Source: Candidatus Zixiibacteriota bacterium
GTDB taxonomy: Bacteria > Zixibacteria > MSB-5A5 > JAABVY01
Length of the DNA stretch: 64,000 bases
Direction of reading: 5' to 3'
Assembly (NCBI GenBank): GCA_011056555.1
Contig: DSEQ01000009.1
Location: 16,281 to 80,280, forward strand
A model generated the notes under the pieces. The model was not told the origin of the DNA and made no database searches. It saw only the letters and a list, made by a program, of their open reading frames with translations. Positions within the stretch are counted from its first letter, which is position 1. Each line of letters starts with the position of its first letter. The translations under genes were made by a program, and so were the position numbers. Shown here one piece after another: positions 29,782 through 49,173 of the stretch.

Positions 29782-31785
29782 CTATTTCTTGCCGGCCTTA
29801 ATCAGTTTCTGAAACCTGCTTATATGCTCCACATCTCCCAAGACATAGAGCGTATCTTCGGCTTCAATCCTGGATGGCCCATCCGGGCTGGTGATAACCC
29901 TGTCCCCCCTCTGAATGGCAATCACTGTAATCCCATGCTTCCTTCTGAGATCAGTCTCCATCAATGTTTTCCCGGCTAATTCGGCTTTTTTATCAACCCT
30001 GAGCGAGCAGACATCAATATCCGAAAGATGGCGCTTGAGGTCAGAGACACTGGAAGTCCTGCGTGAAAGCCCGCGGAACATCTGGTAACTGTCCGCCCTG
30101 ACCTCATCTATGAATTTATCGATCTCCTCGCGCGGCACCAGGTATTTCATCAGCACCTGAGTGAAAATCTCGACTGATGTCTCGAATTCCTCTGGTATCA
30201 CATTATCCGCTCCCAGGTCATATAACGGTTTCATTTCCTGCACAAAACGTGTCCTGACAATTATATGAACACGCGGGTTCATGCGCCGGGCCAGCGCGGT
30301 AATGCGCCGGGTAGCGCTGGGATCGGCAATCGTAATAACGAGAATGCGCGCCTTTTTAATGGCGGCCTGGTGCAGGGCGGCCTCGCCTGTGGCATCACCG
30401 TAAAATATCGGCTCACCCTTCTCCCGCTCCTGGTTGACTGTATCCGGATTCATTTCAATTACTCTGTAATCTATATTCGAGGCCCTGGCTGCACGGGCAA
30501 CATTGCGACCATTGATCCCAAAGCCGATTATTATAAGGTGATCATCCAGGGCTTCGGCAGAAACATGCTTATTTTCTCCCATTGCAATATATGATCCGCT
30601 TTTGTATTTCCTCAGGAAGGGCCAGTCCGACATCCTCTCCGCAAGGCCCGGGGCGGCAGACATGATGAAAGGCGTGACACCCATGGTTAGAATCGAAACC
30701 GCTATAAATCTCTGATATAGATCGCCGTCGATCAGGTTAAACTCCAGTCCGACCCTGGAAAGAATAAACGAAAATTCACCTACCTGGCCCAGGGAAAGTC
30801 CGGCAATTAAAGCCGCACGGCTGGACATCCCCAGAAGCAAAGCCACTCCTGCGGCCAATCCGCTTTTTACGAAAAGGACCAACACAGCACCGCCGGCAAT
30901 TAGAAACGGATTTTCCAGAAAGAACGATATATCCAGAAGCATGCCCACGGATACAAAGAAGAAACTTGTGAAGACCTCCTTGAAGGGCAGGATTCCCTCC
31001 AGCGCTCTATGGCTGTATTCGGATTCGGAGATTACCAGGCCCGCAAGAAATGCTCCCAGTCCCAGCGACAAGCCGGCCTGTGATGTCAGCCAGGCCACGG
31101 CCATTCCGATTACAACTATGCTCAATAGAAAGAGTTCGCGGCTCTGGGTACGGGTTATCTGGTATAATATTCCCGGCACCAGGTAGCGCGCGGTCAGAAC
31201 TACAAGTATAATAACCGCCAGGGCCTTGACAACAAGCATTAAGGGCGATGATCCGGTATGACCCTCAGCCCCGGCCAGGAGAGGGGTGAAAATCATCATC
31301 GGCACTATGATTATATCCTGGAAGATCAATATTGAAAGTACCACCCGTCCATGCGGACTGGCGATTTCGACCTTTTCCTGGAGCACACGCAGGACAATCG
31401 CGGTGCTGCTCAATGCTATCAGGCAGCCGATGAAAAAGGCCCGGGAGGGCTCCTGCCCGAGCTGTATGGCCACCAGGTAGGCAAGTGCTATTGTCAGCAA
31501 CACCTGCAATGTACCCCCCAGCATCACCAGGCGTTTCGAGCGCAGCAGGCTGCGGAATGAAAACTCGATTCCAATCGAAAACAGGAGCAGGATCACGCCA
31601 ATCTCCGCCAGAACCTCTACATCATGTATTGACCTGACGATGCCAAGCGCAGATGGCCCGATTAATAGCCCGGTTACCAGAAATCCAACGATCGAGGGTA
31701 TGCCCAGGCGATGACATATAAAGAGGACGACGACGGAACACCCAAAAATTACAACTATGTCCTGGAGAATCGGAATTTCACCCAC
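29782..31785 (-). CDS. CPA2-family monovalent cation:proton antiporter with TrkA-N and TrkA-C domains (KefB/KefC-like)
   Basis: 667 aa. The N-terminal ~400 aa form a Na_H_exchanger-like membrane domain, followed by a Rossmann segment IIIGFGINGRNVARA and a TrkA-C region. Confidence 0.85.
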   Translation of the reverse strand: MGEIPILQDIVVIFGCSVVVLFICHRLGIPSIVGFLVTGLLIGPSALGIVRSIHDVEVLAEIGVILLLFSIGIEFSFRSLLRSKRLVMLGGTLQVLLTIALAYLVAIQLGQEPSRAFFIGCLIALSSTAIVLRVLQEKVEIASPHGRVVLSILIFQDIIIVPMMIFTPLLAGAEGHTGSSPLMLVVKALAVIILVVLTARYLVPGILYQITRTQSRELFLLSIVVIGMAVAWLTSQAGLSLGLGAFLAGLVISESEYSHRALEGILPFKEVFTSFFFVSVGMLLDISFFLENPFLIAGGAVLVLFVKSGLAAGVALLLGMSSRAALIAGLSLGQVGEFSFILSRVGLEFNLIDGDLYQRFIAVSILTMGVTPFIMSAAPGLAERMSDWPFLRKYKSGSYIAMGENKHVSAEALDDHLIIIGFGINGRNVARAARASNIDYRVIEMNPDTVNQEREKGEPIFYGDATGEAALHQAAIKKARILVITIADPSATRRITALARRMNPRVHIIVRTRFVQEMKPLYDLGADNVIPEEFETSVEIFTQVLMKYLVPREEIDKFIDEVRADSYQMFRGLSRRTSSVSDLKRHLSDIDVCSLRVDKKAELAGKTLMETDLRRKHGITVIAIQRGDRVITSPDGPSRIEAEDTLYVLGDVEHISRFQKLIKAGKK

Positions 31786-32054
31786 TCAGGAGTTCCTTTC
31801 AAATACTTTCGCGCCATGTTTTCGGTGGAACAACCGAAACCGTTCACCCCAAGTTAATTAAGATCAGCTTTTGATTACAAGTAAAAAAGCTGTTTAATTT
31901 GGATTTCAGGTATACCCGGGACGACCTATGCCCTCGATGATCGTCTGTATCGGCAGGGAGGACGGCAAATTATTTACAACAAATGTATTGCCATATTTTC
32001 AACACTTATATAATTTGTTTAAGCCTTGATAAAAAACTATAATCCGGGGCCGAT

Positions 32055-33362
32055 ATGAATAGACCTGAATCATATCATGCTAATACCGTATGGGTTTTTA
32101 TTCTGACGCTCGTCGTTTTTACGGTTGTTTCCGTTCCGGCATTCTGTTACGAGATCGACACAACAAGAGTCCGCGAGAAGCCCGAAGAGAATATAACATT
32201 CGGGGAGGCGGTGCTGGCTGCGCCGTCATTCATCCTGAATCTCCCCTTCTGGGTGCTGAAAAATGTGTCCGATTTCACGGTAAACGAAATCGTCTATTCC
32301 AAACCCATTCAGGCGCTTTTTGCTTTGAAACTCAGGCCAATTTGGGGATTCTACCCCACAGGGGGCTATAATTCCAACGCCGGCGTTAAAGCTGGAATTG
32401 TCTATAGAGTAAAAGATCTTCTCTCGGAGGAGGAGGATTTTAAGGTCAAAGCCTCCTACTCCACCCACGACTACCAGACCTACAGCCTGAGATACAAGAT
32501 CATGCCTCAGAATTCCATATTCAATGAAGTGCATTTCAATTTTAGTTATAGACAGAAGCCCCGCGAAAGCTTTTATGGCATCGGTAACAGGACCTCAGAT
32601 GACAATGAGGTTGCCTTTAACCTCGAAAACGGATTCATGGGCTTCGGCTGGAACCATGAGATTTCCAGTCAGTTCTCAACCGGAGTTGACTTCTCCTACC
32701 GGATACTGAATATCTATGACGGGCAGGACCCATCATTGACCGGCTCTCTCGATTCTATCCAAGCAAAATTCGATCTCAGCGAGGATGAGCTGGCGAATGC
32801 ACGTGTTCTGACTGTGGGCATGAACCTGAAATATGATTGGCGCGACCACCCCGGGCAGACCACATCTGGAGGATACCACGCCCTTGAGCTGTCCTACAAC
32901 AGGGGCAGAGGACAACTTCAAGACCTTGAATATTTCCTGGCTTCGGTTAGTCTATATCAATTCATTCACATTTACAGGCAAAGAGTGCTGGTTCTTAATT
33001 TCCGCACGGAGACCATTGGCAAAACCGATGGATCGCCGGATTTGCCATTTTATCTGAGACCAGCACTGGGTGGTGAAGAGAGTCTGCATGGATATAAGGA
33101 GCATCGCTTCATAGATAATACAACCATGCTGGCGGCGGTAGAATACCGCTTTCCCCTCTTGCAGGGTGTGGACGGCTTATTGTTTTTTGAAGAGGGTAGA
33201 GTTTTTGATGATTTTTCTAAGGATTTCGATCTGAAAAACTGGCATTATTCTACCGGCATCGGTATCAGGTTGTGGGATCAGGAAGGCCTGAGATTAAACG
33301 GCTATGCTGCTTTCAGCAAAGAGAGTCCGCAATTTTACGTGCATTTGTCCGAAACACTCTAA
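32055..33362 (+). CDS. Omp85-family outer-membrane beta-barrel (bacterial surface antigen D15-like, no POTRA domains evident)
   Basis: Signal peptide followed by an alternating amphipathic beta-strand pattern. A loop-6-like motif LGGEESLHGY is present (cf. VRGF/Y of Omp85 proteins). The C-terminal region is aromatic-rich. Confidence 0.55.
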   Translation: MNRPESYHANTVWVFILTLVVFTVVSVPAFCYEIDTTRVREKPEENITFGEAVLAAPSFILNLPFWVLKNVSDFTVNEIVYSKPIQALFALKLRPIWGFYPTGGYNSNAGVKAGIVYRVKDLLSEEEDFKVKASYSTHDYQTYSLRYKIMPQNSIFNEVHFNFSYRQKPRESFYGIGNRTSDDNEVAFNLENGFMGFGWNHEISSQFSTGVDFSYRILNIYDGQDPSLTGSLDSIQAKFDLSEDELANARVLTVGMNLKYDWRDHPGQTTSGGYHALELSYNRGRGQLQDLEYFLASVSLYQFIHIYRQRVLVLNFRTETIGKTDGSPDLPFYLRPALGGEESLHGYKEHRFIDNTTMLAAVEYRFPLLQGVDGLLFFEEGRVFDDFSKDFDLKNWHYSTGIGIRLWDQEGLRLNGYAAFSKESPQFYVHLSETL

Positions 33363-33373
33363 GGATGCACATT

Positions 33374-35086
33374 ATGAAAAATTATATGAAAATATCTTTA
33401 TTGCTGCTGTCACTGATGCTTATGCTGGGTTGCAGCGGCTACAAACCAGTCTTGCAACCGGAGGGTCCCTACTGGGTTGACGACGATAAACAGGATATCC
33501 CGGAACCATCATCCAAGGACCCAAACTTAGCCTGGATGTCCATCAAGCGTTCCAGCTTCGACCAGATTGAAGACGGCCTCGATCTGGAACGGAATTTCAG
33601 GATTCTATCCGATGAGCGTGAAGAAGCGGCCAATATCAACAGTTTCGACGAGGTTCCCAACTGCACCTGGTTCACCAACCGTCATGGTTTCGCACGCATG
33701 ACTCCGGACGAGATCGCCGAAGGAGTCGATCTCACGCCGGGACCGGACACAAGCGGACCATGGCTTGTATTTCGTCCTAAGGTGCAGGGTACCACTCCCG
33801 GTTTCTGGATCGAGGATTCACGGGGAGATCAATATGTCATCAAATTCGACCCGAAGGGGTATCCTGAGATGGCTACGGCGGCGGCCGCCATGGCTTCCCG
33901 ATATTTCCATGCTTGCGGTTATAATGTGCCCCAGGAAACAATTGTATATTATCGTCCCGAAATCCTTCAGGTCAAAGAAGGGGTGAAGTTTGAAGACAAA
34001 GCTGGTGTGAAACGTGAATTCACTCAGCAGGACTTAGAGGATATTCTTAAACGAGTACATCACGAGCCGGACGGGAGAATTCGGTCACTGGCCTCGCTTT
34101 CTCTGGGAATTCATGGTAAAATCAAGGGCCCTTTCAGCTATAGCGGAAGACGGAGCGATGATCCCAATGACTGGTTCGATCACCAGGACAGGCGGGAATT
34201 GCGCGGGCTGTATGTCATCGGATCGTTCATAAATCATTATGACCTGAAGGACCAGAATTCCCTCGATATCTATGTGGAGGAAAACGGAAATAAATTTCTA
34301 AAGCATTTCCTGATCGATTTCGGTTCCACCTTCGGCTCTGACGGCCAGGGGCCAAAGCCGCCTATTAAGGGCTATGCCAATATGATCGATCTTCGTGACG
34401 CCTTCGTATCCCTGATAACTGTCGGCCTCAAGACATGGGACTGGCGGGGAGGTGGCGAGGTAATCTACCCATCCATCGGCTATTTCGAAGCGGATATCTT
34501 TCAGCCCGATAAGTTCGATCCGATCTACCCCAATCCCGCTTTTGAGGACAAAACCGACCGCGACTGCTACTGGGGAGCCAAAATCGTTATGGCATTCCGC
34601 GACAGTGATTTACGCGCCCTGATCGAAACCGGGCAGTATTCCAATCCCCAAGCCGAGGAATATCTGTTCGAAACCCTGAAAAAGCGCCGCGACAAGATTG
34701 GACGATTCTGGTTTTCAAAGGTCAATCCCCTGGATTATTTTGAAACGGAATATGCTGGCAGTGATCTCAGAATCAGGTTCGATGACCTGGGAATCAAATA
34801 CGAGCTCTGGCCCCAAGATGCGGTCTATGACTATGAAATCAGATACGGCAAGGAACTTATCCGCAAGGATCGGGTTAAAACTGGCGAAATAATTCTGACA
34901 CAGGATGATTTAAATCGCATGACCTCGGCATTTAAAGCCACGGATAAAAAAGAGGATTATATTTACAGGATGGATATCAGAACCACCAGAGGGAATGGTG
35001 ATCCGAGCAAGCCAACCCGATTGCATTTCTGGTATCATCATGATGAAAATAAATTCTCATTGGTGGGAGTCGAACATCTGGATTGA
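33374..35086 (+). CDS. lipoprotein with a eukaryotic-like (Hanks-type) protein-kinase-fold core
   Basis: ATG at 33374 with an AAGGA SD. The signal peptide plus lipobox is MKNYMKISLLLLSLMLMLGC. Kinase motifs are YVIKF (Lys codon 33842-33844), HYDLKDQN (34235-34258) and DFG (34316-34324). The ORF-track start at 33272 overlaps the upstream gene and is rejected. Confidence 0.6.
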   Translation: MKNYMKISLLLLSLMLMLGCSGYKPVLQPEGPYWVDDDKQDIPEPSSKDPNLAWMSIKRSSFDQIEDGLDLERNFRILSDEREEAANINSFDEVPNCTWFTNRHGFARMTPDEIAEGVDLTPGPDTSGPWLVFRPKVQGTTPGFWIEDSRGDQYVIKFDPKGYPEMATAAAAMASRYFHACGYNVPQETIVYYRPEILQVKEGVKFEDKAGVKREFTQQDLEDILKRVHHEPDGRIRSLASLSLGIHGKIKGPFSYSGRRSDDPNDWFDHQDRRELRGLYVIGSFINHYDLKDQNSLDIYVEENGNKFLKHFLIDFGSTFGSDGQGPKPPIKGYANMIDLRDAFVSLITVGLKTWDWRGGGEVIYPSIGYFEADIFQPDKFDPIYPNPAFEDKTDRDCYWGAKIVMAFRDSDLRALIETGQYSNPQAEEYLFETLKKRRDKIGRFWFSKVNPLDYFETEYAGSDLRIRFDDLGIKYELWPQDAVYDYEIRYGKELIRKDRVKTGEIILTQDDLNRMTSAFKATDKKEDYIYRMDIRTTRGNGDPSKPTRLHFWYHHDENKFSLVGVEHLD

Positions 35087-35089
35087 TTT

Positions 35090-36319
35090 GTGATCATGAA
35101 GGTAAGTATTTTTATACCCATATCAATTTTATGCCTGTTTCAGGCATTCACATCTCTCCATGCAGAATCCAATGATCCACATGCAATCAGTGGAAGTGAT
35201 TTTGATCATTTAATGAATATCCAGAATGTTGAATTACAGAATAAACTCGAGAATATATTTCCCGAGAGTGAAGGTTATCTGGTAAGCGGACCTCTGTGCG
35301 ACGATACGTTCGAGGACTCTGCGTATTTTTATTGCGGTGCGGTCAGGGTTATTTGCCCAAACCTTAAACTATATAAGCAAGGTATAGACATAGCCGCCGG
35401 CATGGACAGTCTCACTGCAATTACAGATTATCCGGATCCAAGCGGATCATACTATGCCTTTGAAAAATATTATACTTATCATAATGGTAACCTGGTCGAT
35501 ACGTTCAAGTTTGAAACCGCAAATTCCGTTCGGTACGAGCTTGCCTTAAATAAGGAGCTGATATTCAGCCCGCTTCGAAGTGATGTCATCCGCATGCCCG
35601 ATTCAGAACGTAAGGAAATGCATGATTATTTCCTTCAATATGACTCCGGGAATATTCCGGCAGAGCAGCTTTACATACATTACGTACCCTATATCATCGA
35701 GGGCTATCAGAATTACAAAGAGTTCCTTTTAAGTCATGCCGAGATCGATCTCGATTTCATAAGCGGCGTGACCGCCTTTGTACCCACTGAAGAAACTCTG
35801 CAATGGTTCAGGGAGAATGCTCCGCAGGAGGCATATCCCAATAAGGAAGCGTCCAAATTTGAGGAGGAAATTCATGAATTCTTCGAGCGCGGCGGTGATT
35901 TGCGCGTCATCCAGACTTTAACGAAAGAAGGCTTCGACACACTTCAAAGCGGGGAATATTTCTATGCTGTCAGCCCTGCATACAAAATTCGTTTTGGACG
36001 GGAGCTTTTGCGCGAGGAGGTCAAACGTATCGAAGAGGAAACGGGCAAGAAGGTCCCGCGCGCCAATCATGCCTTTTTATTCCCGGGCGAAGCGGTACTG
36101 ACCGCCGGGGCTTTCTGGATAGATACAGACAAGGAAAACAAGCTGGTCAAGGTCAATGCCCAGTCCGGCCATTATTTCTACAGCAATGTTTCCCCGACTA
36201 TCCGCGAGGATATCTCCGAACGTTCCGACCATTACCTGACCACGCTGGGTCATTTTTTCAAGGCCCTTGACAGCCTGCAAATTCCCTGCGATAAGATTCT
36301 CATAAGTAAACTCCAATGA
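35090..36319 (+). CDS. secreted hypothetical protein
   Basis: 409 aa with signal peptide MIMKVSIFIPISILCLFQAFTSLHAE and no recognised domain. The start is 4 nt after the upstream stop. Confidence 0.55.
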   Translation: MIMKVSIFIPISILCLFQAFTSLHAESNDPHAISGSDFDHLMNIQNVELQNKLENIFPESEGYLVSGPLCDDTFEDSAYFYCGAVRVICPNLKLYKQGIDIAAGMDSLTAITDYPDPSGSYYAFEKYYTYHNGNLVDTFKFETANSVRYELALNKELIFSPLRSDVIRMPDSERKEMHDYFLQYDSGNIPAEQLYIHYVPYIIEGYQNYKEFLLSHAEIDLDFISGVTAFVPTEETLQWFRENAPQEAYPNKEASKFEEEIHEFFERGGDLRVIQTLTKEGFDTLQSGEYFYAVSPAYKIRFGRELLREEVKRIEEETGKKVPRANHAFLFPGEAVLTAGAFWIDTDKENKLVKVNAQSGHYFYSNVSPTIREDISERSDHYLTTLGHFFKALDSLQIPCDKILISKLQ

Positions 36320-36340
36320 TGGCTTGAGCGGTAAGCGGAT

Positions 36341-37192
36341 ATGAAAAAAGTCGGCAGTTACAAGATATTATTGATTCTATCCATACTCTTTTTCTCCTTC
36401 CGGCCTTTACCGGCAGACGACCGTGAATATCTCTCCAGCACAGAGATCACTGGCATATCGGCCGGCTCGATTGCGCTGGGAGCCGCGGGGCTGTGGGCAC
36501 TCGATTTCGATAGCACCCGTCGTCCGGTAATTTCAGGCCCGGCGCCATGGGAAGAGTCGATTCAGCGTTTTCTGGGCGGGAGATACTATCCGGGCAAAAC
36601 CAACTGGCTGGACCACAGCTTCGGCTCTTCCATAACTCCCATTTTGATGGGCGGTTTGCTTCTGGGCGCCGATATCAGCTGGCCCCGGTATGATCGCGCC
36701 AAAGATGTCTGGCAGGATATGTTTTTGTACGGCGCGGGCCTTCTTGCAACCAAAGGCGTTACCGGGATCACCAAGGGTTTCTTCGCACGTCCGCGTCCCA
36801 TGGTCGCGCTTGAGCCTGAGCTTTACAACCGGAATAAAAATAATGATTACGCCCAGGATCGGGCTTCATTCTTCTCGGGTCATACCTCCAGCGCCTTTTT
36901 CTCCACCGCTTTTCTGAATATGCGCATCCGCCAGATCATGCGCCAGGAGATGACCTATAATGACTACAAGGACTGGCGCTGGCTGCCGCCGACAATCCTG
37001 TTCGGCTGGGCCTCCTACGTGGGCTACACCCGTATCGATGCTTATAAACACTATATAACCGATGTTGTTTTTGGAGCTCTGGCAGGATGGGTGATGGCGG
37101 AGCTGTTTTATCATTTCGGCGACAATATAGAAAAGCCCCGGGACTCATCATCAAGGGGCAAGGTTCTATTCAAAATAGGATTCAGCTTTTAG
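36341..37192 (+). CDS. PAP2-superfamily membrane phosphatase/phosphotransferase
   Basis: PAP2 motifs KGFFARPRP (KxxxxxxRP), SGHTS (PSGH) and YTRIDAYKHYITD (SRxxxxxHxxxD-like), with multiple TM helices. Confidence 0.8.
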   Translation: MKKVGSYKILLILSILFFSFRPLPADDREYLSSTEITGISAGSIALGAAGLWALDFDSTRRPVISGPAPWEESIQRFLGGRYYPGKTNWLDHSFGSSITPILMGGLLLGADISWPRYDRAKDVWQDMFLYGAGLLATKGVTGITKGFFARPRPMVALEPELYNRNKNNDYAQDRASFFSGHTSSAFFSTAFLNMRIRQIMRQEMTYNDYKDWRWLPPTILFGWASYVGYTRIDAYKHYITDVVFGALAGWVMAELFYHFGDNIEKPRDSSSRGKVLFKIGFSF

Positions 37193-37671
37193 ATAAATGT
37201 CTTCACGATCTCGGTCTGCAAACCCTGAAGCTCACCATAGGCCTTATTGATTTCCGCTATCTTCTCCTCCAGCTTTTTCATGAGCTTTTGTCTTTCGATG
37301 CCATTCCGAAGAACGATCAGGAGATCATCATTATCCCACGGTTTCTCAATATACTGGAACAGTCCGACGTCATTTATAGCCTTGATTGCATTTTCCTTGT
37401 CGGCATAACCGGTCAGAATAATACGAGGCACCTGGGGCCGCATCTCCTTGACCTTTGCCAGAAAGGATATCCCATCCATCTCCGGCATCAGATAATCGGA
37501 AATCACCACATCAATCTCATTCTTCTTGATATATTCCAGCGCGTCTTTCGCTGAGGTGAAGGTCTCGACAGTGTATTCCGTCTCGAGGCTCAAGAATGAA
37601 TTGAGGCTCGTCAGGACCATCTCTTCATCATCAACGATTACGACCGTGCTTTTCTCCTTATCATCAACCAT
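37189..37671 (-). CDS. standalone response-regulator receiver (REC) domain protein
   Basis: 160 aa with the phospho-acceptor region DVVISDYLMPEMDG. It is a close paralog of the REC domain in the upstream gene. Confidence 0.85.
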   Translation of the reverse strand: MVDDKEKSTVVIVDDEEMVLTSLNSFLSLETEYTVETFTSAKDALEYIKKNEIDVVISDYLMPEMDGISFLAKVKEMRPQVPRIILTGYADKENAIKAINDVGLFQYIEKPWDNDDLLIVLRNGIERQKLMKKLEEKIAEINKAYGELQGLQTEIVKTFI

Positions 37672-37673
37672 CT

Positions 37674-38900
37674 CTATCTCCTGTCTGTGTTAATTTCGAT
37701 TCCGAACAGTGTAACATCATCACTATACACCCCGCCATTAAAATCACCCAGGGACTCCGCCAGGCCATTAATTATTTCCCCGCAGGCGGAGCTGCCTAAT
37801 TTCTTCAAGACTTCGGGCAGATTTTTGCTTTCAAAAAAGTCTCCATCCTTGTTGACCGCCTCGGTCAGTCCGTCAGTATATAATATCAAACTGTTGCCCG
37901 GGTCAAGCATTACTGCTTTATCCGGCCCCGGCTTATACATTTCCGGTCTTATAAAGCCCAGCATCATACCGTTAGACGCAACCAGTTCCGATTTGTTTTC
38001 CTGCTTGCGAATAAGATACGGATAAGTCAAGCCGCCGTTAGATATGGTGATCTCCCTTTTGCCCGGATCGATCCTGGCAACCAGTGCCGCCACATAGAGT
38101 TCCTCCGGGAGGCCCTTCTCCAGGATTTCGTTCATGCCGCTCAGGATTTGCGAGGGTTGATGGTTTCCTCCGGCAAATGATACGAAGGCGAATTTCAGAA
38201 GCGCGGTGCTCAGAGCCGCCTGTATGCCATGCCCGGTGGCATCCGCCACCAATACCGACCAGCAGCCGTCCTGCATCGGTATGATATCATAAAAATCACC
38301 GCCAATCTCTATCGCCGGCTTATAGTAAGTTTCAAATTTCACGCCGTCAATTTGGGGAAGTTTACGCGGCAGCAATGCCTGCTGGAGCTTGCGGGCAAGC
38401 TTCAGCTCACGTGCAATCATATTGTTGTGTTCAAAGAGCTCATCACGATGTCTCAGGACTTCATCCAGCTCCTTGATCTTCATGTGCAGATGCTCTCTCA
38501 GGCTCTTGGATTCAATAGCATTTTTGAGAACCAGCTTAAGCTGTTCATTGTCCCATGGTTTTTCCAGGTACTGGAACAGGCTTACCTCGTTGATGGCCTT
38601 GATGGCATTTTCCTTGTCGGCATAACCGGTAAGAAGAATCCGGGGCAGGTCGGGATACATTTCCCGCACTGCACTCAAAAACTGCAGACCGTTCATATCC
38701 GGCATCAGGAAATCGGATATAACCACATCCACCGGCTTCTGCTTCAGCCGCTCCAGAGCCTCATGCGGTGACTGGTAGCCGATCACATTGTATTCGGTCT
38801 CCAGTTCCAGAAAAGATCCCAGGCTCTGCACCACAATCTCATCGTCATCGACCAGCATTATGGTTTTTGACGATCTCTCATCCATATTACTATCGCTCAT
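37674..38900 (-). CDS. response regulator with C-terminal PP2C/SpoIIE-type serine phosphatase domain (RsbU/RssB-like)
   Basis: N-terminal REC (DVVISDFLMPDMNG) plus a C-terminal PP2C region (GGDFYDIIP ... VADATGHG ... LYTDGLTEA). Confidence 0.85.
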   Translation of the reverse strand: MSDSNMDERSSKTIMLVDDDEIVVQSLGSFLELETEYNVIGYQSPHEALERLKQKPVDVVISDFLMPDMNGLQFLSAVREMYPDLPRILLTGYADKENAIKAINEVSLFQYLEKPWDNEQLKLVLKNAIESKSLREHLHMKIKELDEVLRHRDELFEHNNMIARELKLARKLQQALLPRKLPQIDGVKFETYYKPAIEIGGDFYDIIPMQDGCWSVLVADATGHGIQAALSTALLKFAFVSFAGGNHQPSQILSGMNEILEKGLPEELYVAALVARIDPGKREITISNGGLTYPYLIRKQENKSELVASNGMMLGFIRPEMYKPGPDKAVMLDPGNSLILYTDGLTEAVNKDGDFFESKNLPEVLKKLGSSACGEIINGLAESLGDFNGGVYSDDVTLFGIEINTDRR

Positions 38901-40480
38901 CGTCCTCGAATTGGAATTATGATTCTGAAGGTTGTACCCTGATTCACTCTGGATTCGACCTCGATTCGGCCCTTATGGTCCTCAGTTATCTGGTGAACGA
39001 TCGAAAGCCCCAGGCCGGTTCCGACCCCGGCGCCTTTGGTTGTATATCCCGGATCAAATACCCGTTCCAGTTTATCCTCGGGAATTCCGCGGCCGGTATC
39101 GGAAAATTCAATAACAGCATCGCCGCCCTGGCGGCGTGTTCTGATAATAATCTTACCTTTATCCTCGATAGCCTGGCTGGCATTGACCAGTATATTCATA
39201 AAGACCTGGTTAAGCTGGTTGGGATAGCAGCTTATCTTCGGCAAATCCCCATAATCCTTTTCAACTTCCACCCGATCCTTGAGCTGGTGATGCACCAGTG
39301 TCAACGTATTTTCTATGCCGTCATGGATATTTACAGTATCCATTTCCGCCTGGTCGAGGCGGGCGAATTTGCGCAGGCTGCTGACAATATTGATTATTCG
39401 GGAAGAGGCTGTTTTATTGATCCGGGTGAGATCTTCCATATTTTCCAACAGCTTACCGAGCTGCTTGCTTTCACGAAATTCGGTCGGCGCAGCAGAATCG
39501 GAGACCATGGCCTTCAGCTTCTCGATAGAGCGGATGAAAAGATCGTTGTTGCTGTTGAGTGCTCCCAATGGCGTATTGATTTCGTGGGCTACGCCCGCCA
39601 CCAGATTACCGAGGGCAGCCATTTTTTCCGCCTGCACCAGCTGCGTCTGTTTCTGTCGCAGCTCCCTTGTCCGTTCCTCCACCTTCTGCTCGAGCTCCTC
39701 GTTAGCTTTTTTCAGCTCCTGCTCAAGCCGGTATCGGGTCGTAACGTCCTGCACAATATTCAGTTCGCGCCAGTTATGTTTAATATCCCGAAAATAGCCG
39801 GTGGTGAACTGGTAAACTCTGTTGTTGGGAAATATCCTCTCCTCCACATAGACGCCGTCCTCGCTCAGGATCTGCTCGCTTTCCACCCGCTGATCGTCAA
39901 TAGACTGCTCCCAACCGCATGGGCAGCCCTCATCCCGGGCCCGGTCAAAAATCTCTTTCAGCTTTTTATTCTCAAATTCAACTTTCGGTTCGCCATTTAT
40001 ATTCTTACGTACCCCCAGACCGACCGGCATTAGATCAAGAATATATTCATAATATTCGCGCAGGCGTCTATTCTCCCTCTGCAAAAGAACGCGACTTGTT
40101 ATGTCACGGCAAATACGCTGAATGATCTTCTTGTCCCCGTAATTTATGACTCCTGCGGAAATTTCTATATCCAGGAGGGTCTTATCTTTTCGCAGAAAAT
40201 GCAGTTCGCCGGTATAGCCCTTACCGCTTTCCACCACCTGGTTAAAAAGCCGCCTGGATTCCTCCCACTCAGATTCGGGATGGAGTTCCCAGACTTTCTT
40301 ACCCACTAACTCGTCAACGCTGAAGCCGGTCAGCTTCTCGGCCCTGAGATTCGCCTCCAGTATGGTGCCGTCAGCCGGTTCGATCGAAAAGATGGCGTCG
40401 CTGGCCATCTCGATCATCTTGCGGTATTTCTCTTCCGACTCCCGCAGGCTTTTTAAATCGGAGTTATCTGCCTTAACCAT
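38897..40480 (-). CDS. cytoplasmic PAS-domain sensor histidine kinase
   Basis: No TM segments. PAS-like N-terminal regions, an H-box VAGVAHEINTPL and HATPase_c G-boxes (DTGRGI and GTGLGLSIV). Confidence 0.85.
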   Translation of the reverse strand: MVKADNSDLKSLRESEEKYRKMIEMASDAIFSIEPADGTILEANLRAEKLTGFSVDELVGKKVWELHPESEWEESRRLFNQVVESGKGYTGELHFLRKDKTLLDIEISAGVINYGDKKIIQRICRDITSRVLLQRENRRLREYYEYILDLMPVGLGVRKNINGEPKVEFENKKLKEIFDRARDEGCPCGWEQSIDDQRVESEQILSEDGVYVEERIFPNNRVYQFTTGYFRDIKHNWRELNIVQDVTTRYRLEQELKKANEELEQKVEERTRELRQKQTQLVQAEKMAALGNLVAGVAHEINTPLGALNSNNDLFIRSIEKLKAMVSDSAAPTEFRESKQLGKLLENMEDLTRINKTASSRIINIVSSLRKFARLDQAEMDTVNIHDGIENTLTLVHHQLKDRVEVEKDYGDLPKISCYPNQLNQVFMNILVNASQAIEDKGKIIIRTRRQGGDAVIEFSDTGRGIPEDKLERVFDPGYTTKGAGVGTGLGLSIVHQITEDHKGRIEVESRVNQGTTFRIIIPIRGR

Positions 40481-40508
40481 ATTTTCATATCCGGTCCCGG
40501 CGCCGATG

Positions 40509-40937
40509 TCAGGCTACTCGTTCGACCAAATTCCTGAGCCTCTTTACCACAGTCTTGATTACGCCCTGCGCAATCTGCACATGGTCGGCCAGCAGATCGA
40601 TGAAATCCTCGCGGTCGACACGAAGCAGACGGCAGTCTGCGGCCGCGGTTGCGGTTACCACTCTCGGCTCCTCATCAAAAAGAGCCCAGGTACCAAAGGC
40701 ATCGTCTTTTTCTGCAGTGGAAATTTCCTGGTCGCCTCTGTGCAGCTTCACCTTGCCCTCCAGCACAAGGTAGAGCGCATCCGAGGGATCATGTTCCTTG
40801 TAGATCACGTCCCCCTTGATATATTCCACTTCCTCTGCTATCGAGGCCAGAGAGGCCAGCTGCTCGGTGGGCACTTCCGAGAAAACATCGATATTCTGCA
40901 AAAGAATTACTTTTTCAACAATAGAAAGCATACTCAA
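40509..40937 (-). CDS. standalone cyclic-nucleotide-binding (CAP effector) domain protein
   Basis: 142 aa with ..GDVIYKEHDPSDALYLVLEGKVKL ... FGTWALFDEEPRVVTATAAADCRLL.. and no DNA-binding domain. Confidence 0.75.
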   Translation of the reverse strand: MSMLSIVEKVILLQNIDVFSEVPTEQLASLASIAEEVEYIKGDVIYKEHDPSDALYLVLEGKVKLHRGDQEISTAEKDDAFGTWALFDEEPRVVTATAAADCRLLRVDREDFIDLLADHVQIAQGVIKTVVKRLRNLVERVA

Positions 40938-40986
40938 TACTCTTTATTTAAACAACGTCATTTCCACATCAAAGTTCTTACAGGCA

Positions 40987-43758
40987 CTATGTTTCAAACC
41001 GCTTAACCACTCTTTCCGCAGTCTCCTTTACCAATGGGTCGGGATCATTTTGAGCGTCGTGGATTAGCTTCCTCATATTCTCGGAAGCATTAGCGGTAAC
41101 ATTATAGATCGCACAACACCTGAGCCAATTATCGTGACCCTTGATAAGGCGCTCCAGGGCTTCCTCCCGGGTACGGGTCTTGACACGGAAAAACTCCTCG
41201 CCTTTGCGAAGCACTGTTTCGACCGGAACATCATCGAGTATCGGGAGAATATATTTCTTTACGTCGCGACTCAGGAGATTATCGAGAAACTCGATAGCAT
41301 TGGCCTGAAGCACCTTTTTGCCGCTCACGAACCCCTGATAGGCATAAAATATGTCTGTGGGAGGATAGACCAGACCCAGGAGCCGGAATATCCGTTCGAG
41401 GTTGTACTGCTGTTTTTCTTCCAGCGCCTTTTTCAGGAGTTTGGAACCCGGTGATTCATCGAATTGCCTGTGGGAATATAGGATCTGGTAAATTTCATAA
41501 TAATCCTTGATTTCATTCAGAAGGACCTGTTCCACCTTCCCATGGTCAAAGCTGAGCTCCGAATAGACGCTTCGCAGGCTGTTCAGGGCTTTGACCACAT
41601 GATATTTCAGGGAGGGTTCCACCTTATCCAGGTTGTCGGTCAAAACATCAACTGTCTCCTGCTCAGGAATCAGCTTCATCACCCTTGGTATATTTTTGCG
41701 AATATTGTAATCGACTGCGCGGTCGTGCAGGTAATCGCTGAGGGTCCCCAGCACGCCTGTTCCGAAATCGGCCAGCGCTTTGCGAACATTTGCGCGCAAA
41801 TCCCTGTCGGTCAATCTCTCGATCAGCCAGGGTATATATTTGCGCCGTTTCAAACGGCCGATGCATTCTATCGCATTTTTCACCACCTCGATCGACTTAT
41901 CATTAAGCAGAATCTCTATGTAGCCGCTGAATTCCGGTTTGTTCACCACGCCCAGAATCCGGGCGACCTGAATACGGCTCAATTCCGCCTCCTCAGATAT
42001 ATCGCGCATGGCCGCCTTTATGAGTTCCTCATCGACCAGCTCCCTTTCCTCCGGACGGCCATAATCGGTAAGATATGCCAGAGCTGCATTGACTATGCGA
42101 GGGTCATCGCTGCGCAGGTATTCCCGCAGTTTTTCCAGAGTATCTCCCTCGGTTCGGGAGCATATGAAGTGCACGGCCTCCGAACGGACCTCAATGTCCT
42201 CATCAGTCAGCATCTTCTCTACTATCTCCATATGCGAGCGGTCGCCATGCTCGAGAAGCACCTTCAGCGCATCGAGCCTGATGTCGGCCGACTCATGCCT
42301 CAAATGAGGAACTACTTTTTCCACCCTCTCAACATTCTTCACCGAACGCAGCATCTCCAGCGCATATCCAATCTGCCGATCATTGGGGCTGTCCAGCGAA
42401 TTTATCAGCGCATTGATGGTGGAGCGGTCATCGATCTGAACGGTGAGCCTGGAATAGTCGATCTCGCGCTTTTCAATGGCTCTGCGGAATGAATTCAGAT
42501 ATTCCTTCCGCATGAAGACAGTCAGGGTTAACCAGATAAGCAGTAATCCAATCACGATCAGACTGATTTCCTTTACCGTCAGATGAAAGACGAGGGTGCA
42601 GAGAAGCAGAAGGGCGCCGGCAAATCCGCGGAACCACCTGTCCACGAACATATCGATAAATATTTTTGTGCGCTTTTTTACCTCCAGCGGTATGGGCAAA
42701 AACAGCAATTCCCTGCCGGTCTTGTCCATAGAATATTTTATACTGCCATCCACTCCCCTCAGCATTATACCGGCAATCAAGCCGGGGAAGAGAAACATCG
42801 CCGCTGAGCCAAGCAATAATCCCGTCGGCAGAAACATAATGATACCGCCCACCCCCAAAAAGCGAATTAGCCTGTATGTAAAAAACAATTGCAGTATTAG
42901 TGAAGCCATGCTGAGCCAGCTGTAGAACTGTCCGAAGAATGATGTCAGATCAGCTTTTTCCGGATAAGCAGCTTTGGATACGGTTTTGAACTGCCAATCC
43001 ACAAATGAAGCCACCATCATGGTTATAGCTATAATACCCACAAGCAATAACAGGTGGCGTGACCTGAAAATCGTCTTTGTAATCTGCCCCAGCTTTTCCC
43101 CGGGGGGCTCGCGATGGCGAGCGGAACGCTGAAGTTCCTTCTCCGAAACAGTCTTCTTCTTCCAGATTACGGCTACCAGTAAAGCTACAATTACGAGCGG
43201 TACCATACAGATAAATAAGAGGTTTTCCGTGCCTACATCCAGGGCCTTGACGAGGAAACTGGTGACCTGTCCACCGGTGAAGGCGCCGATAATCCCCCCC
43301 AGTCCGAGTAATGTGAAGACTCGTTTGGCCTGTGCAGAATTATACACGGCATTGGCCAGAAGCCAGAATTGGGAGGTCGTAAGCACGCCATAGATGCTCA
43401 CCCATGTATAAAATAGATAATAAACCCAGGCGCTGGAGATCTGGACCAGCCAGCGCAGAATAAAAAGATTCACTATAATAATGGCAAGAGTGAAAATAAT
43501 CAGTCGATTCAGCTTCAACGAACGGCTGGCCCTGGAATAAAGTGTAACAACAGGAGCGGTCACCAGGGCGGTGATAATGAAAACAAGCGGGAGCATCTCC
43601 GAACTGACCCTCACCAGAAACAGCGAATCCCTGGCGGGTTTAAGCAGGTAATAGCTCAAAAGGATCAGGTAATAACTGGACAGCATCAGCAGGGTCAGTG
43701 CGATTTCACCCTTCCTGATGTCAAATATCGATTTGAGAAAACTCTTCATCGAATTCAT
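40987..43758 (-). CDS. fusion protein: N-terminal TLC/Npt-like (ATP:ADP antiporter family) 12-TM permease plus C-terminal HEAT-repeat (PBS-lyase-like) domain
   Basis: 923 aa. The N-terminus (ALTLLMLSSYYLILLSYYLLKPARDSLFLV) aligns by eye with the N-terminus of chlamydial/rickettsial nucleotide translocases. The C-terminal ~480 aa carry repeated D..VR..A..AL helical units (DADIRLDALKVL, DEDIEVRSEAVHFI, DKSIEVVKNAIECIG). Confidence 0.7.
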   Translation of the reverse strand: MNSMKSFLKSIFDIRKGEIALTLLMLSSYYLILLSYYLLKPARDSLFLVRVSSEMLPLVFIITALVTAPVVTLYSRASRSLKLNRLIIFTLAIIIVNLFILRWLVQISSAWVYYLFYTWVSIYGVLTTSQFWLLANAVYNSAQAKRVFTLLGLGGIIGAFTGGQVTSFLVKALDVGTENLLFICMVPLVIVALLVAVIWKKKTVSEKELQRSARHREPPGEKLGQITKTIFRSRHLLLLVGIIAITMMVASFVDWQFKTVSKAAYPEKADLTSFFGQFYSWLSMASLILQLFFTYRLIRFLGVGGIIMFLPTGLLLGSAAMFLFPGLIAGIMLRGVDGSIKYSMDKTGRELLFLPIPLEVKKRTKIFIDMFVDRWFRGFAGALLLLCTLVFHLTVKEISLIVIGLLLIWLTLTVFMRKEYLNSFRRAIEKREIDYSRLTVQIDDRSTINALINSLDSPNDRQIGYALEMLRSVKNVERVEKVVPHLRHESADIRLDALKVLLEHGDRSHMEIVEKMLTDEDIEVRSEAVHFICSRTEGDTLEKLREYLRSDDPRIVNAALAYLTDYGRPEERELVDEELIKAAMRDISEEAELSRIQVARILGVVNKPEFSGYIEILLNDKSIEVVKNAIECIGRLKRRKYIPWLIERLTDRDLRANVRKALADFGTGVLGTLSDYLHDRAVDYNIRKNIPRVMKLIPEQETVDVLTDNLDKVEPSLKYHVVKALNSLRSVYSELSFDHGKVEQVLLNEIKDYYEIYQILYSHRQFDESPGSKLLKKALEEKQQYNLERIFRLLGLVYPPTDIFYAYQGFVSGKKVLQANAIEFLDNLLSRDVKKYILPILDDVPVETVLRKGEEFFRVKTRTREEALERLIKGHDNWLRCCAIYNVTANASENMRKLIHDAQNDPDPLVKETAERVVKRFET

Positions 43759-43817
43759 GCCCTCGGCTCTGTACGTAAGATATTAACTAAGCTATATCAG
43801 ATCTATAATCAAGCAAT

Positions 43818-44015
43818 TTATCCGGGTCTGCCGACAATGTCACGGCATATTTTGCCCTTCACCCCTTTTGGAATCAGCATAAGTACTGCCCTCGTGTGGT
43901 TTTCCACTTCAACGCCTAAAGTGGTAAAACACGGATCAAGAGTTTTGTCGATGATGTCTGTCGGTCTCCCGCCGCCGGGACCCGATATTTCCACAAATAT
44001 ACAGTCTTTGTTCAA
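43818..44015 (-). CDS. possible small protein (65 aa, TTG start) immediately upstream of the transporter-HEAT operon
   Basis: ORF with a glycine-rich motif EISGPGGGRPTD. It has a non-ATG start and no recognisable family. Confidence 0.25.
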   Translation of the reverse strand: MNKDCIFVEISGPGGGRPTDIIDKTLDPCFTTLGVEVENHTRAVLMLIPKGVKGKICRDIVGRPG

Positions 44016-44596
44016 AAATGTCCTAATTTAAATTTTACCAATTCCACTGTGTAATGCAGACAGGGATGCTTTTTGATTTCTTCATTTGATATTAAATCCC
44101 GCAATTTTCTATGGCCCGATTTGGAATAATATAAAGCATTACTCAGTAACATCTCAATCTCTTTTTTCAAGGGCAGGCAATATTTTAGACTGGATGCGCC
44201 CTCAGAAATCGCGCTGATGGATTCCTTTTAATGAATTCGAAATGAAGTTGAGACCCCAGACAGAAGATACATAACTGCAAGTCTCCCAACAGAATTATCT
44301 ACAGTACCGGAAACGTATTTTTCGGAAAATAATATGGAGACCCTCTGAATCGGGGCGGGATATATGTTCGGATGATATTCGGATTCTATTCCTGCTTCGC
44401 TCGTAAAGATGTTTCAGGTGGGATCAGGGTTTGCTTTTAATGAAATTCTAATGATGGCCTAACATCATTTGGACAAAACAGACGTTATTACTTCAAGTTT
44501 TGACAGATAACATGGTCAAGGGAATAATGGTTTTGATAATTTTTAAAGCTGATATCTGGTAGGCATTCATATCAGATTTATTTTTATGGAGGTTGT

Positions 44597-47574: not shown

Positions 47575-48990
47575 GTGAAAAAGTACCTGTCAGTAACATT
47601 GAAACCCATATTTGCACTTGTGGCAATCCTGACCCTGGCGGTCTTTACCGGATGCAGTGACGATGACAACAATAGTTCGGTCGGTCCTGATGACGGCGAT
47701 GAATCTTTCGCCTTTTTATTCGATGATATGATCCAGGCCGGTGACAGCATGAACCTTTCTGCCGATAGCAACTGGCTCGTGAGCGGCTTCGTGTTTGTCG
47801 AGGAAGGCGCCGCATTGTCGATAGAACCGGGCGCGGTCATACGATTTAGGCCGGGTACCGGAGTCAATGCCAGCGCTTTGATAATTGCCCGGGGCGGAAG
47901 GATCTGGGCCAACGGCACGCAGGATAATCCCATCATCTTTACAGCGGAAGTTGACGATGTCAATGATCCCAGCGACCTGGGCCTCTTCGACAACGGTCTC
48001 TGGGGCGGTTTGATCATCCTTGGAAGCGCAACCGTGAATACCCCTACAGGTCTCAGCCAGATCGAAGGCATCCCTTCGGACGAAATTCGCGGCGAATACG
48101 GCGGAAATGACGACAACGACAATTCCGGGTCGCTCCGCTATGTCTCTATCCGTCACGGCGGATCGGAAATCGGGGCTGCCAACGAGATCAACGGTTTGAC
48201 CCTGGGCGGAGTCGGCAGACAGACTGTAATTGAATATGTCGAAATCTACTCCAATTTTGATGATGGTGTGGAATTCTTCGGCGGTGTACCCAGCACCAGG
48301 AACATCGCGGTCGCCTTCTGCGGCGATGACGCTTTTGATTATGATGAAGGGTTCCGCGGCAATGGCCAGTTCTGGTTTGCGGTGCAACATGAAAAAGTCG
48401 GCAACAGGTGCGGCGAGCATGACGGCGCCACAGGCGATGAGCAGGGTACACCCTTTGCTCATCCTATCATCTCCAACGCCACCTACATCGGCTCCGGAAA
48501 CCGCTCCGCCAACAGCGACAACGATTACGCAATCATCATGCGTGATAACGCAGGCGGTGAATATCACAACAGCATCTTCTACGGTTTCCAGGGCTCCGGC
48601 TTGCATGTCGAGGACAAGACCGGCGAAGCGATCGAACACAGCCGTGCCCGGCTTGAGGCCGGCGATATCGTCTTCAATAACAATATCTGGTACAGCTTTG
48701 GCGCAGGCAACACAATGAACGATGTTTTCCAGCAGGAGTTCGTCAGAACCGTTATGGCTCAGCAGGGCTGGACCAACGAAATGGTCGATCCGTTAATCAA
48801 CTCAGTGGCCAGGCTTAATACCGGCGCATTGAATCCGGTGCCCAGTGCATCCGGACCTGCCGCCAATGCGGCTGATCAGCCCGCAGGCGCTTTCTTCCAG
48901 AATGTCAGCTACAAAGGCGCATTTCAGCCCGGTTCTGCAAACTGGCTTAAGGGATGGACGGCCCTGGATCATTACGGGTTCCTGCAATAA
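47575..48990 (+). CDS. cell-surface lipoprotein, Gly/Asn-rich with repeated GG..G/NN motifs (possible beta-helix), receptor-associated
   Basis: GTG start with a GGAGG SD and a lipobox LAVFTGC. Glycine- and asparagine-rich repeats run through the protein. Confidence 0.65.
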   Translation: MKKYLSVTLKPIFALVAILTLAVFTGCSDDDNNSSVGPDDGDESFAFLFDDMIQAGDSMNLSADSNWLVSGFVFVEEGAALSIEPGAVIRFRPGTGVNASALIIARGGRIWANGTQDNPIIFTAEVDDVNDPSDLGLFDNGLWGGLIILGSATVNTPTGLSQIEGIPSDEIRGEYGGNDDNDNSGSLRYVSIRHGGSEIGAANEINGLTLGGVGRQTVIEYVEIYSNFDDGVEFFGGVPSTRNIAVAFCGDDAFDYDEGFRGNGQFWFAVQHEKVGNRCGEHDGATGDEQGTPFAHPIISNATYIGSGNRSANSDNDYAIIMRDNAGGEYHNSIFYGFQGSGLHVEDKTGEAIEHSRARLEAGDIVFNNNIWYSFGAGNTMNDVFQQEFVRTVMAQQGWTNEMVDPLINSVARLNTGALNPVPSASGPAANAADQPAGAFFQNVSYKGAFQPGSANWLKGWTALDHYGFLQ

Positions 48991-49048: not shown

Positions 49049-49173
49049 AATTTTATTTAACATGGAATAAAGTTTGGCGGAACAATTCTATTGCTTTTGA
49101 TATTTTACATTTCTAATATTTGGTTGACGTAAGAGAAACCCATAAACTCCATAATCTTTTAAAGGAGGTACTG

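Follow-up and report, generated by a model that had tools for sequence, protein, structure and literature searches.

What does a small set of envelope genes in a Candidatus Zixiibacteriota genome do with a protein that resembles a kinase and is exported from the cytoplasm? The genes, g1 to g4, lie close together on the plus strand of a 64,000 nucleotide (nt) stretch of contig DSEQ01000009.1 (here called the window), and are predicted to encode an outer-membrane barrel of the Omp85 family, a lipoprotein with a kinase fold, a secreted protein and a PAP2-type membrane enzyme, respectively. To our knowledge, the periplasm is generally assumed to be without ATP, and envelope processes to draw their energy from the inner membrane or from pre-activated donors. 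The initial annotation of the window treated the four genes as a functional unit and proposed that the PAP2 enzyme donates phosphate from undecaprenyl diphosphate (Und-PP), which would remove the need for periplasmic ATP. Comparison with other genomes points elsewhere. The conserved unit is the pair of genes for the barrel and the kinase-fold protein. This pair is linked, often within one operon, to genes for an NTT-type transporter, an NTT-HEAT fusion, a cNMP-binding protein (cNBD) and a receiver, and for one exported phosphoesterase. The problem of ATP supply is more likely solved by the neighboring NTT genes than by PAP2. We tentatively read the locus as an envelope module for ATP-fed phosphorylation outside the cytoplasm.

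Conserved gene pair and its extensions

A pattern scan that took a single genome for each GTDB species found relatives of g2 in at least 564 genomes. Eighty loci were fetched, from Zixibacteria, Calditrichia, KSB1, Latescibacterota, Krumholzibacteriia, Gemmatimonadota, Acidobacteriota, Bacteroidota/Rhodothermales/Balneolaceae, Marinimicrobia and Nitrospirota. Synteny was counted over 81 distinct loci, using tblastn with the four window proteins. Greedy open reading frame (ORF) calling took antisense ORFs in some GC-rich loci, so that the ORF-based counts (PAP2, metallophosphoesterase, cNBD, receiver) are lower bounds; the tblastn recount is the better estimate for the occurrence of NTT genes.

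A g1 homolog occurs immediately upstream of the g2 homolog in at least 70 of the 81 loci, and several of the others are cut by contig ends. In contrast, g3 homologs were identified in 5 loci (tblastn) and g4-like PAP2 genes in about 15. Thus, we reject the four genes as the conserved unit. The initial annotation would have been refuted by lipoprotein homologs that are not syntenic with Omp85 and PAP2 genes; synteny holds for Omp85 and fails for PAP2 in most loci.

The four genes nevertheless form a real arrangement in this lineage, and homologs with a named organism place the window in Zixibacteria. The same order recurs in five other Zixibacteria genomes (L001, L003, L004, L005 and L015), and is thus not a product of chance. 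The ORF list bears out the tight packing that was first reported, with intergenic gaps of 11, 3 and 21 nt using the listed starts (an alternative g2 ATG at 33365 would shrink the first gap to 2 nt). Scans for promoters and terminators between 31500 and 37800 gave results at the background of shuffled sequence and are neutral regarding co-transcription. As also anticipated, export signals are readable in the translations of all four genes.

Nucleotide transporter genes linked to the pair

Clustering of all flanking ORFs identified TLC/NTT as the most recurrent family after the core pair. It occurs in two forms, a protein of ~440 amino acids (aa) and an NTT-HEAT fusion of ~940 aa, and the fusion often precedes a cNMP-binding protein of ~145 aa and a receiver of ~160 aa (identified with Pfam). 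An NTT-like gene is found near the g2 homolog in 48 of the 81 loci, and in two more, where the fetched locus ends, just the HEAT/cNBD part is visible (tblastn). Sixteen loci are too truncated to judge. Of the 65 that can be assessed, about 50 (roughly three quarters, across more than ten phyla) have such a gene. The closest copy has the same orientation in 36 loci and follows downstream in 37. Often fewer than 500 nt separate the NTT genes from the pair, and genes overlap by 4–8 nt in L017, L052 and L075. Linkage was seen in Zixibacteria, Calditrichia, KSB1, Latescibacterota, Krumholzibacteriia, Gemmatimonadota, Acidobacteriota, Bacteroidota/Rhodothermota and Nitrospirota.

The typical layout on one strand is Omp85 – kinase – (metallophosphoesterase) – NTT – NTT-HEAT – cNBD – receiver (L017, L021, L052 and L065). 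In at least 11 loci, the cNMP-binding protein is encoded after NTT-HEAT or forms a fusion with it. A receiver of 141–174 aa (mostly ~160) is the terminal module gene in L001, L003, L004, L005, L015, L018, L021, L048, L052 and L078.

In the window, the NTT set (37189–43758) has minus-strand orientation and runs toward g4. It lies beyond the region considered in the initial annotation, which missed the main conserved partner. The receiver is the last gene of this operon and its stop codon overlaps that of g4. Also present are genes for a PAS histidine kinase, found at the same position in L001, and for a cytoplasmic receiver-PP2C phosphatase, which we did not recognize as a regular member of the module elsewhere. 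A scan of 31000–45000 with Rfam for a riboswitch that could point to a ligand gave no match at E values up to 1.

NTT-HEAT and NTT-HEAT-cNBD proteins are monophyletic and widely conserved in free-living bacteria, and are functionally uncharacterized (Major, Embley & Williams, 2017; PMC5381601). The window gene has exactly the NTT-HEAT architecture, with the cNBD gene next to it, the same pairing as described by these authors. They propose ATP uptake and mention no link to Omp85 or kinases, whereas the context found here suggests supply to the periplasm. Our literature searches found no characterization of NTT-HEAT-cNBD after 2017.

The exported kinase-fold protein

The g2 product begins MKNYMKISLLLLSLMLMLGC (the 570-aa form) and has a lipobox, a conserved N-terminal segment, a domain predicted to be kinase-like and a C-terminal sandwich (Table 1). 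Searches of Pfam, NCBIfam and the PDB with the g2 and g3 sequences returned nothing usable, consistent with the first description of g3 as lacking a recognizable domain, and structure prediction alone resolved both proteins. For g2 there was no match to PF00069 or any other Pfam model at E values up to 1, and no PDB sequence match even at E values of 1–10. An AlphaFold (AF2) model built from an alignment of 36 homologs has a mean predicted local distance difference test score (pLDDT) of 89.6 and a predicted template modeling score (pTM) of 0.90. Its best structural neighbors are atypical kinases rather than eukaryotic protein kinases (ePKs), and the closest structure is CtkA. FN3/Ig-like domains rank after the kinases in the fold search and match the C-terminal sandwich.

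Conservation was measured on an alignment of 70 sequences from ~12 phyla. Residues K136 and G139 of the Gly-rich loop, the ATP-anchoring K157 at the end of β3, the catalytic D290, N295, H311 and the Mg-binding D315 of the DFG motif are at least 97% identical. The spacing of the catalytic residues is ePK-like (D-x4-N, then DFG 20 residues on). Conserved at the same level are an Arg/Asp-rich segment (R260, D263, N265, D266, H270, R273, R274 and R277) and the N-terminal residues D38, N87, W99 and R103. The model gives g2 a bilobal kinase fold, the alignment shows an intact, conserved nucleotide/Mg2+ catalytic site, and the protein may catalyze phosphotransfer. The structural check suggested at the outset therefore favors a kinase fold for the lipoprotein, and the lipobox, HYDLKDQN and DFG motifs stand as first read. 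The label "Hanks-type" was too specific and is rejected, given the lack of a match to PF00069 and the atypical kinases as top structural neighbors.

Judged by sequence, g2 appears to fall outside every described kinase family. There is no detectable sequence relationship to CtkA (Helicobacter pylori JHP0940; PDB 3akj), type II PI4K, HipA, CotH or Fam20, and identity in the structural alignments is 10–15%. Unlike CtkA and the atypical kinases, g2 adds the conserved N-terminal segment of ~100 aa, a lipid anchor, an FN3-like C-terminal domain and an Omp85 neighbor gene. Neither Pfam nor NCBIfam has a model for the family. It is large: a HMMER scan of 1.84 billion representatives identified 3,579 clusters (at 50% identity) at E values up to 1e-3, and 1,162 at up to 1e-30. 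Distant clusters that were looked up are annotated only as "hypothetical protein", and no cultured organism was found among them.

Among the homologs whose N-termini were examined, a lipobox or signal peptide is present in all that are not obviously extended by a mis-called upstream start. Most are lipoproteins, for which the criterion was a signal peptide that ends in the lipobox pattern [LVI][ASTVI][GAS]C; in those of Acidobacteriota, Gemmatimonadota and some Latescibacterota, the signal peptide is a plain one, without lipid anchoring. In Bacteroidota, the signal for export of lipoproteins to the cell surface consists of acidic residues after the lipid-modified cysteine. In the Bacteroidota homologs these residues are basic, not acidic, which suggests that the family faces the periplasm.

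Two unusually long, distant homologs, P0387 (1158 aa) and P0384 (742 aa), have C-terminal extensions of 200–640 aa that are similar to each other. We checked these regions for informative fusions and found no Pfam domain. Genes for classical Hanks-type kinases (PF00069, ~530–790 aa) occur next to the exported kinase-fold gene in eight loci (L029, L047, L051, L055, L058, L062, L068 and L072), in several of them directly after it on the opposite strand.

The Omp85 barrel

The g1 translation starts with a hydrophobic signal sequence. The protein matches the NCBIfam model Omp85_fam with an E value of 9.5e-22, below the cutoff of that model, and has no Pfam match. Of the 33 syntenic orthologs, 31 match Pfam Omp85 (PF01103), and a profile of all 33 matches the barrels of BamA (E values of 1e-15 to 1e-13) and also TamA. 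The barrel match spans profile positions ~98–438, leaving ~65 residues after the signal peptide. No POTRA domain was found in g1 with Pfam. Thus, the initial reading of g1 as a POTRA-less Omp85-type barrel is supported. We assign the protein, on its sequence profile, to the "noNterm" class of Omp85 proteins, which have no POTRA or other periplasmic domain before the barrel.

The noNterm class is that of Heinz and Lithgow; it is functionally uncharacterized, and its Leptospira members (LIC12252, LIC12254 and LIC12258) are encoded beside lipoprotein genes (PMC11358297). They likewise have a POTRA-less, BamA-like barrel of 16 strands and consensus lid-lock motifs. Their neighbors are DUF1566 or Big-domain lipoproteins, whereas the partner identified here has a kinase fold. 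In the g1 family consensus, the lid-lock motifs of Omp85 read LRGF and FxDxG; the window protein has LHGY and FFEEG, so that His and Glu take the place of the consensus Arg-Asp pair.

The arrangement of the pair varies. The kinase gene is duplicated around one barrel gene (kinase – Omp85 – kinase) in L028, L032 and L038, and kinase-fold genes occur in tandem in L080 (Bryobacteraceae). In Gemmatimonadota loci, a gene for an HtrA-like Trypsin_2-PDZ protease is found upstream of the barrel gene.

PAP2 and the alternating metallophosphoesterase

Membership of the PAP2 family was judged by the Pfam gathering score and the motifs KX6RP, PSGH and SRX5HX3D. The g4 protein scores 76.3 bits against a cutoff of 27.2 and its three motifs are intact, in agreement with the first assignment. 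Its nearest solved relatives are PLPP1-3, eukaryotic lipid phosphate phosphatases (E value of 9e-10); LpxE is a weak match. No NCBIfam model for LpxT or any other named PAP2 protein was matched at E values up to 1.

With LpxT, LpxE, LpxF and the lipid phosphate phosphatases, g4 shares the three motifs and a multi-helix membrane core. It differs from LpxT, LpxE and LpxF in other features. An N-terminal segment resembles a signal peptide, the membrane helices that follow are weakly hydrophobic, and the protein ends in a β-signal-like strand (VLFKIGFSF) after a polar, unconserved linker of ~15–20 aa. We know of no such features in LpxT, LpxE or LpxF. Phenylalanine ends 80 of 103 PAP2 homologs, and the last residue is hydrophobic or aromatic in 97 of the 103. 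The same kind of ending occurs in module-adjacent PAP2 proteins of Bacteroidota and Nitrospirota, and was noted in L001, L008, L012, L014, L019, L020, L054, L059, L064 and L078. This raises the question of whether the helical PAP2 protein may be docked to the Omp85-like barrel or sited in the outer membrane.

A gene for a calcineurin-like metallophosphoesterase is present in 16 of the 81 loci, and never together with PAP2. This protein carries a lipobox or signal peptide and weakly matches a model for 2',3'-cyclic-nucleotide phosphodiesterase. PAP2 is thus a lineage-specific addition that is replaced elsewhere by an exported metallophosphoesterase. Because PAP2 is dispensable and swapped for a hydrolase, we see it as a candidate hydrolase arm and not as a phosphate donor. 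The proposal that phosphate from Und-PP takes the place of periplasmic ATP is not supported on these grounds, and also because the kinase keeps its nucleotide site and has an NTT partner.

The secreted protein g3

The signal peptide of g3 ends LHA|E. The structure model has a pLDDT of 85.6, and its 32 best Foldseek matches are RSH-family alarmone synthetases or proteins of the GTP-pyrophosphokinase family; these matches are weak (E values from 1e-3, TMt at most 0.47). The best PDB match of the sequence profile is the synthetase YwaC, also weak (E value of 0.058). In this alignment VRVICP of g3 is placed against GVRIIC of RSH, and the catalytic Asp (DxxGxR) and Glu (ExQIRT) of RSH are not conserved acidic residues in g3. 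The models suggest that part of g3 has a fold like that of RSH synthetases and Pol-β nucleotidyltransferases. The best-conserved residues are in the C-terminal half (aa 200–390), which has no match.

Exported alarmone synthetases are known (SaEAS and VpEAS/RelV; PMC12691689), and the similarity of g3 to them is weak, without the catalytic Asp and Glu and without a counterpart to its best-conserved region. The g3 family comprises 228 clusters, and all members with a named organism are from Zixibacteria. We consider g3 a lineage-specific addition to the module, probably as a second exported nucleotide-type fold. A diverged metallophosphoesterase, the enzyme encoded at the same position in other phyla, was considered as an identity for g3, but the fold search points to an RSH/nucleotidyltransferase-like fold instead.

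Proposed function

In the arrangement that we tentatively favor, NTT proteins of the inner membrane would exchange cytoplasmic ATP for periplasmic ADP. Given a periplasmic enzyme that turns ATP into ADP, such an antiporter would run toward ATP export. Signals from the cytoplasm may control this supply through the cytoplasmic HEAT domain, the cNMP-binding protein and the receiver. On the periplasmic side of the outer membrane, on or beside the barrel, the kinase-fold protein would spend the ATP on phosphorylating a component of the envelope, and the phosphate would be taken off again by PAP2 or by the metallophosphoesterase. In Zixibacteria, g3 would add a second secreted protein with a nucleotide-type fold. 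The similarity of g4 to lipid phosphatases hints at a lipid or glycolipid of the outer membrane as the substrate; a protein substrate is also possible.

Kinases of the eukaryotic secretory pathway (Fam20C, VLK) are fed by the lumenal ATP/ADP exchanger AXER/SLC35B1. The logic of the proposed module is the same, in that the kinase is topologically outside the cytosol and relies on an ATP/ADP antiporter in the bounding membrane. It differs in the transporter family (NTT/TLC-type, MFS), in that the outer membrane around the periplasm is porous, and in that the module is deduced from genes. ATP-using enzymes past the inner membrane have precedents in alarmone synthetases that are exported or periplasmic (PMC12691689) and in Lig E, a periplasmic ligase that depends on ATP.

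Several observations weigh against this reading. With TIGR00769, the NTT-HEAT protein of the window scores 56 bits and the NTT-like proteins 56–68, relative to a cutoff of 387. They are thus far from the characterized NTP/NDP exchangers, and specificity for ATP and ADP is an assumption. The short NTT paralog of L017 has only partial similarity to the solved NTT1 (E value of 6e-11). In about 15 of the assessable loci, NTT genes are absent from the 6 kb around the pair, and a search of the window for the metallophosphoesterase and the short NTT paralog found neither. K292 of the HxDxKxxN loop is conserved among close relatives of g2 only. Small solutes generally pass through the outer membrane, which poses the problem of retaining ATP in the periplasm, and kinase folds can catalyze AMPylation or glutamylation, or be pseudoenzymes. 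We infer, rather than observe, enzyme activity, ATP binding, the direction and substrate of transport, and contact between barrel and kinase.

Alternative explanations

One alternative, which we consider unlikely, is secretion or surface display. The POTRA-less barrel would carry the kinase-fold protein across the outer membrane, much as two-partner secretion or Slam systems do, for action on other cells or external substrates, and NTT would be loosely related, for example through uptake of released nucleotides. A barrel gene followed by a cargo gene is the commonest layout, the homologs with a plain signal peptide have no lipid anchor to hold them, two kinase genes can flank one barrel, and CtkA, the closest structure, is a secreted kinase. 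However, ATP is scarce outside cells, the Bacteroidota homologs do not have the acidic residues of the surface export signal, and the operon-level linkage to NTT, cNBD and receiver would be left unexplained. Hallmarks of two-partner secretion (TPS), namely two POTRA domains in TpsB and an N-terminal TPS domain in TpsA, were not found with Pfam: there is no POTRA in g1 that could handle the substrate, and no TPS/haemagglutination domain in g2. The comparison with Leptospira cuts both ways, as genes for noNterm Omp85 proteins also adjoin genes for lipoproteins of suspected surface exposure, yet the BamA-type lid-lock motifs kept in our family consensus imply a closed dome, which speaks against a secretion pore (PMC11358297).

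Quite unlikely, in our assessment, is a system for nucleotide capture and uptake, with the barrel as a channel, the kinase-fold lipoprotein as a nucleotide receptor or processor, phosphoesterases that trim the nucleotides, and NTT as the importer over the inner membrane. All of the components could bind nucleotides or phosphate esters, the metallophosphoesterase weakly resembles a cyclic-nucleotide phosphodiesterase, and an outer-membrane barrel with a lipoprotein recalls the logic of SusC/D uptake. The invariant catalytic Asp, Asn and DFG Asp exceed the needs of binding, however, and a periplasmic kinase step would still require a phosphate donor. Solute channels are not known among Omp85 barrels, a PAP2 of the lipid-phosphate-phosphatase type is poorly suited to soluble nucleotides, and cytoplasmic control by cNBD, receiver and HEAT is atypical for scavenging. 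The direction of transport fits this alternative, in that characterized NTTs are importers (PMC5381601).

A structural or assembly role is very unlikely. The kinase-fold lipoprotein would then be a non-catalytic accessory of an Omp85-type insertase, an analog of the BamB-E lipoproteins that takes the place of the POTRA domains, and would assemble or tether envelope proteins, possibly including PAP2. A BamA-like barrel without a periplasmic domain is consistent with such a role, as are the strongly conserved first 100 residues of the lipoprotein (D38, N87, W99 and R103), which could be a docking segment, and the hydrophobic or aromatic PAP2 endings. Full conservation of the catalytic residues across phyla would not be expected of a pseudokinase, however; most loci are without PAP2, and the NTT linkage is again unexplained.

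The version of the initial annotation, a self-contained four-gene unit with PAP2 as an LpxT-like phosphotransferase using Und-PP and no periplasmic ATP, is highly improbable: the tight packing, the order kept in five other Zixibacteria genomes, the complete active site of g4 and the precedent of LpxT for ATP-independent periplasmic phosphorylation (PMC2229476) speak for it, but PAP2 is present in a minority of loci and interchangeable with a hydrolase, g4 matches no LpxT or other named PAP2 model and is closest to lipid phosphate phosphatases, the kinase fold retains its nucleotide site, and linkage to NTT is much stronger than linkage to PAP2.

Locus layout and neighboring genes

Coordinates of the genes, motifs and flanking features are given in Table 1. 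Divergent from g1 is a Kef-like gene (Na_H_Exchanger-TrkA). In three Gemmatimonadota loci (L047, L051 and L058), an NhaA gene is located between the kinase and NTT genes (~9200–10900 of the locus). The recurrence of cation/proton antiporters beside the module may be coincidence. On the other side, a stretch of 838 nt without a long ORF separates the start of the NTT-HEAT gene from a gene for a TonB-dependent receptor with an N-terminal CarboxypepD_reg domain; the stretch has no Rfam match at E values up to 1. Beyond the receptor gene are two ORFs without Pfam matches, followed by genes for a TonB_C protein and an esterase-TPR protein.

Table 1. Genes, motifs and neighboring features of the locus (window coordinates; residue numbers refer to the g2 protein).
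Feature	Position (nt)	Residues (aa)	Strand	Details
g1	32055-33362		+	ORF list; 435 aa; putative POTRA-less Omp85-family outer-membrane barrel
g1 lid-lock site LHGY	33084-33095		+	consensus LRGF
g1 lid-lock site FFEEG	33183-33197		+	consensus FxDxG
g2 (KIN)	33374-35086		+	internal ATG at 33374 within long ORF 33272-35086; 570 aa; predicted exported kinase-fold lipoprotein
g2 lipobox LMLGC	33419-33433	16-20	+	
g2 conserved N-terminal segment		21-125	+	
g2 atypical protein-kinase-like domain (predicted)		~126-450	+	
g2 Gly-rich loop KVQGTTPG	33779-33802		+	
g2 β3 Lys157	within 33836-33850	157	+	
g2 catalytic loop HYDLKDQN	34235-34258	288-295	+	
g2 DFG	34316-34324	315-317	+	
g2 C-terminal FN3/Ig-like sandwich (predicted)		~453-570	+	
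g3	35090-36319		+	ORF list; 409 aa; GTG start; secreted protein
g4	36341-37192		+	ORF list; 283 aa; PAP2 lipid-phosphate-phosphatase-type membrane enzyme
g4 PAP2 motif KGFFARPRP	36773-36799		+	
g4 PAP2 motif SGH	36875-36883		+	
g4 PAP2 motif RIDAYKHYITD	37031-37063		+	
g4 C-terminal β-signal-like strand VLFKIGFSF	37163-37189		+	
Receiver (REC + C-terminal helix of ~40 aa)	37189-37671		-	160 aa; Pfam Response_reg E 1.7e-28
Receiver-PP2C (SpoIIE) phosphatase	37674-38900		-	408 aa; cytoplasmic regulator; Pfam SpoIIE E 1.4e-41, Response_reg E 1.9e-25
PAS histidine kinase	38897-40480		-	527 aa; Pfam HATPase_c, HisKA, PAS
Stand-alone cNMP-binding protein	40509-40937		-	142 aa; Pfam cNMP_binding E 1.1e-19; directly after NTT-HEAT
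NTT-HEAT	40987-43758		-	923 aa; Pfam TLC (PF03219) 76.2 bits vs cutoff 21; HEAT_2 E 1.2e-23
Na_H_Exchanger-TrkA (Kef-like) gene	29782-31785		-	
Stretch without long ORF	43759-44596			838 nt
TonB-dependent receptor gene	44597-47527			
ORF	47575-48990		+	471 aa
ORF	49120-49704		+	194 aa
TonB_C protein	50241-51059		-	
Esterase-TPR protein	51202-52449		-	

Significance

The components have known folds; the novelty lies in the kinase family and in the combination of genes, and the proposed function is a prediction. Literature searches found no description of the kinase family or of a module of barrel, kinase and NTT, in keeping with the initial impression that the gene combination is undescribed. 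The broadest form of the proposal is a periplasmic, ATP-dependent phosphorylation switch in many diderm bacteria (the FCB group, Acidobacteriota, Gemmatimonadota, Nitrospirota and related phyla), in which ATP export by NTT/NTT-HEAT is gated, the kinase is docked to the barrel and a phosphoesterase resets the system. In this general form we consider it doubtful.

If true, such a switch would give a function to the NTT-HEAT-cNBD proteins of free-living bacteria, to noNterm Omp85 proteins and to a kinase family that is absent from Pfam, and would overturn the rule that there is no ATP-driven signaling in the periplasm. The module is a concrete, testable candidate for a regulated supply of ATP and reversible phosphorylation outside the cytoplasm, and offers a first functional context for NTT-HEAT-cNBD and POTRA-less Omp85 proteins.

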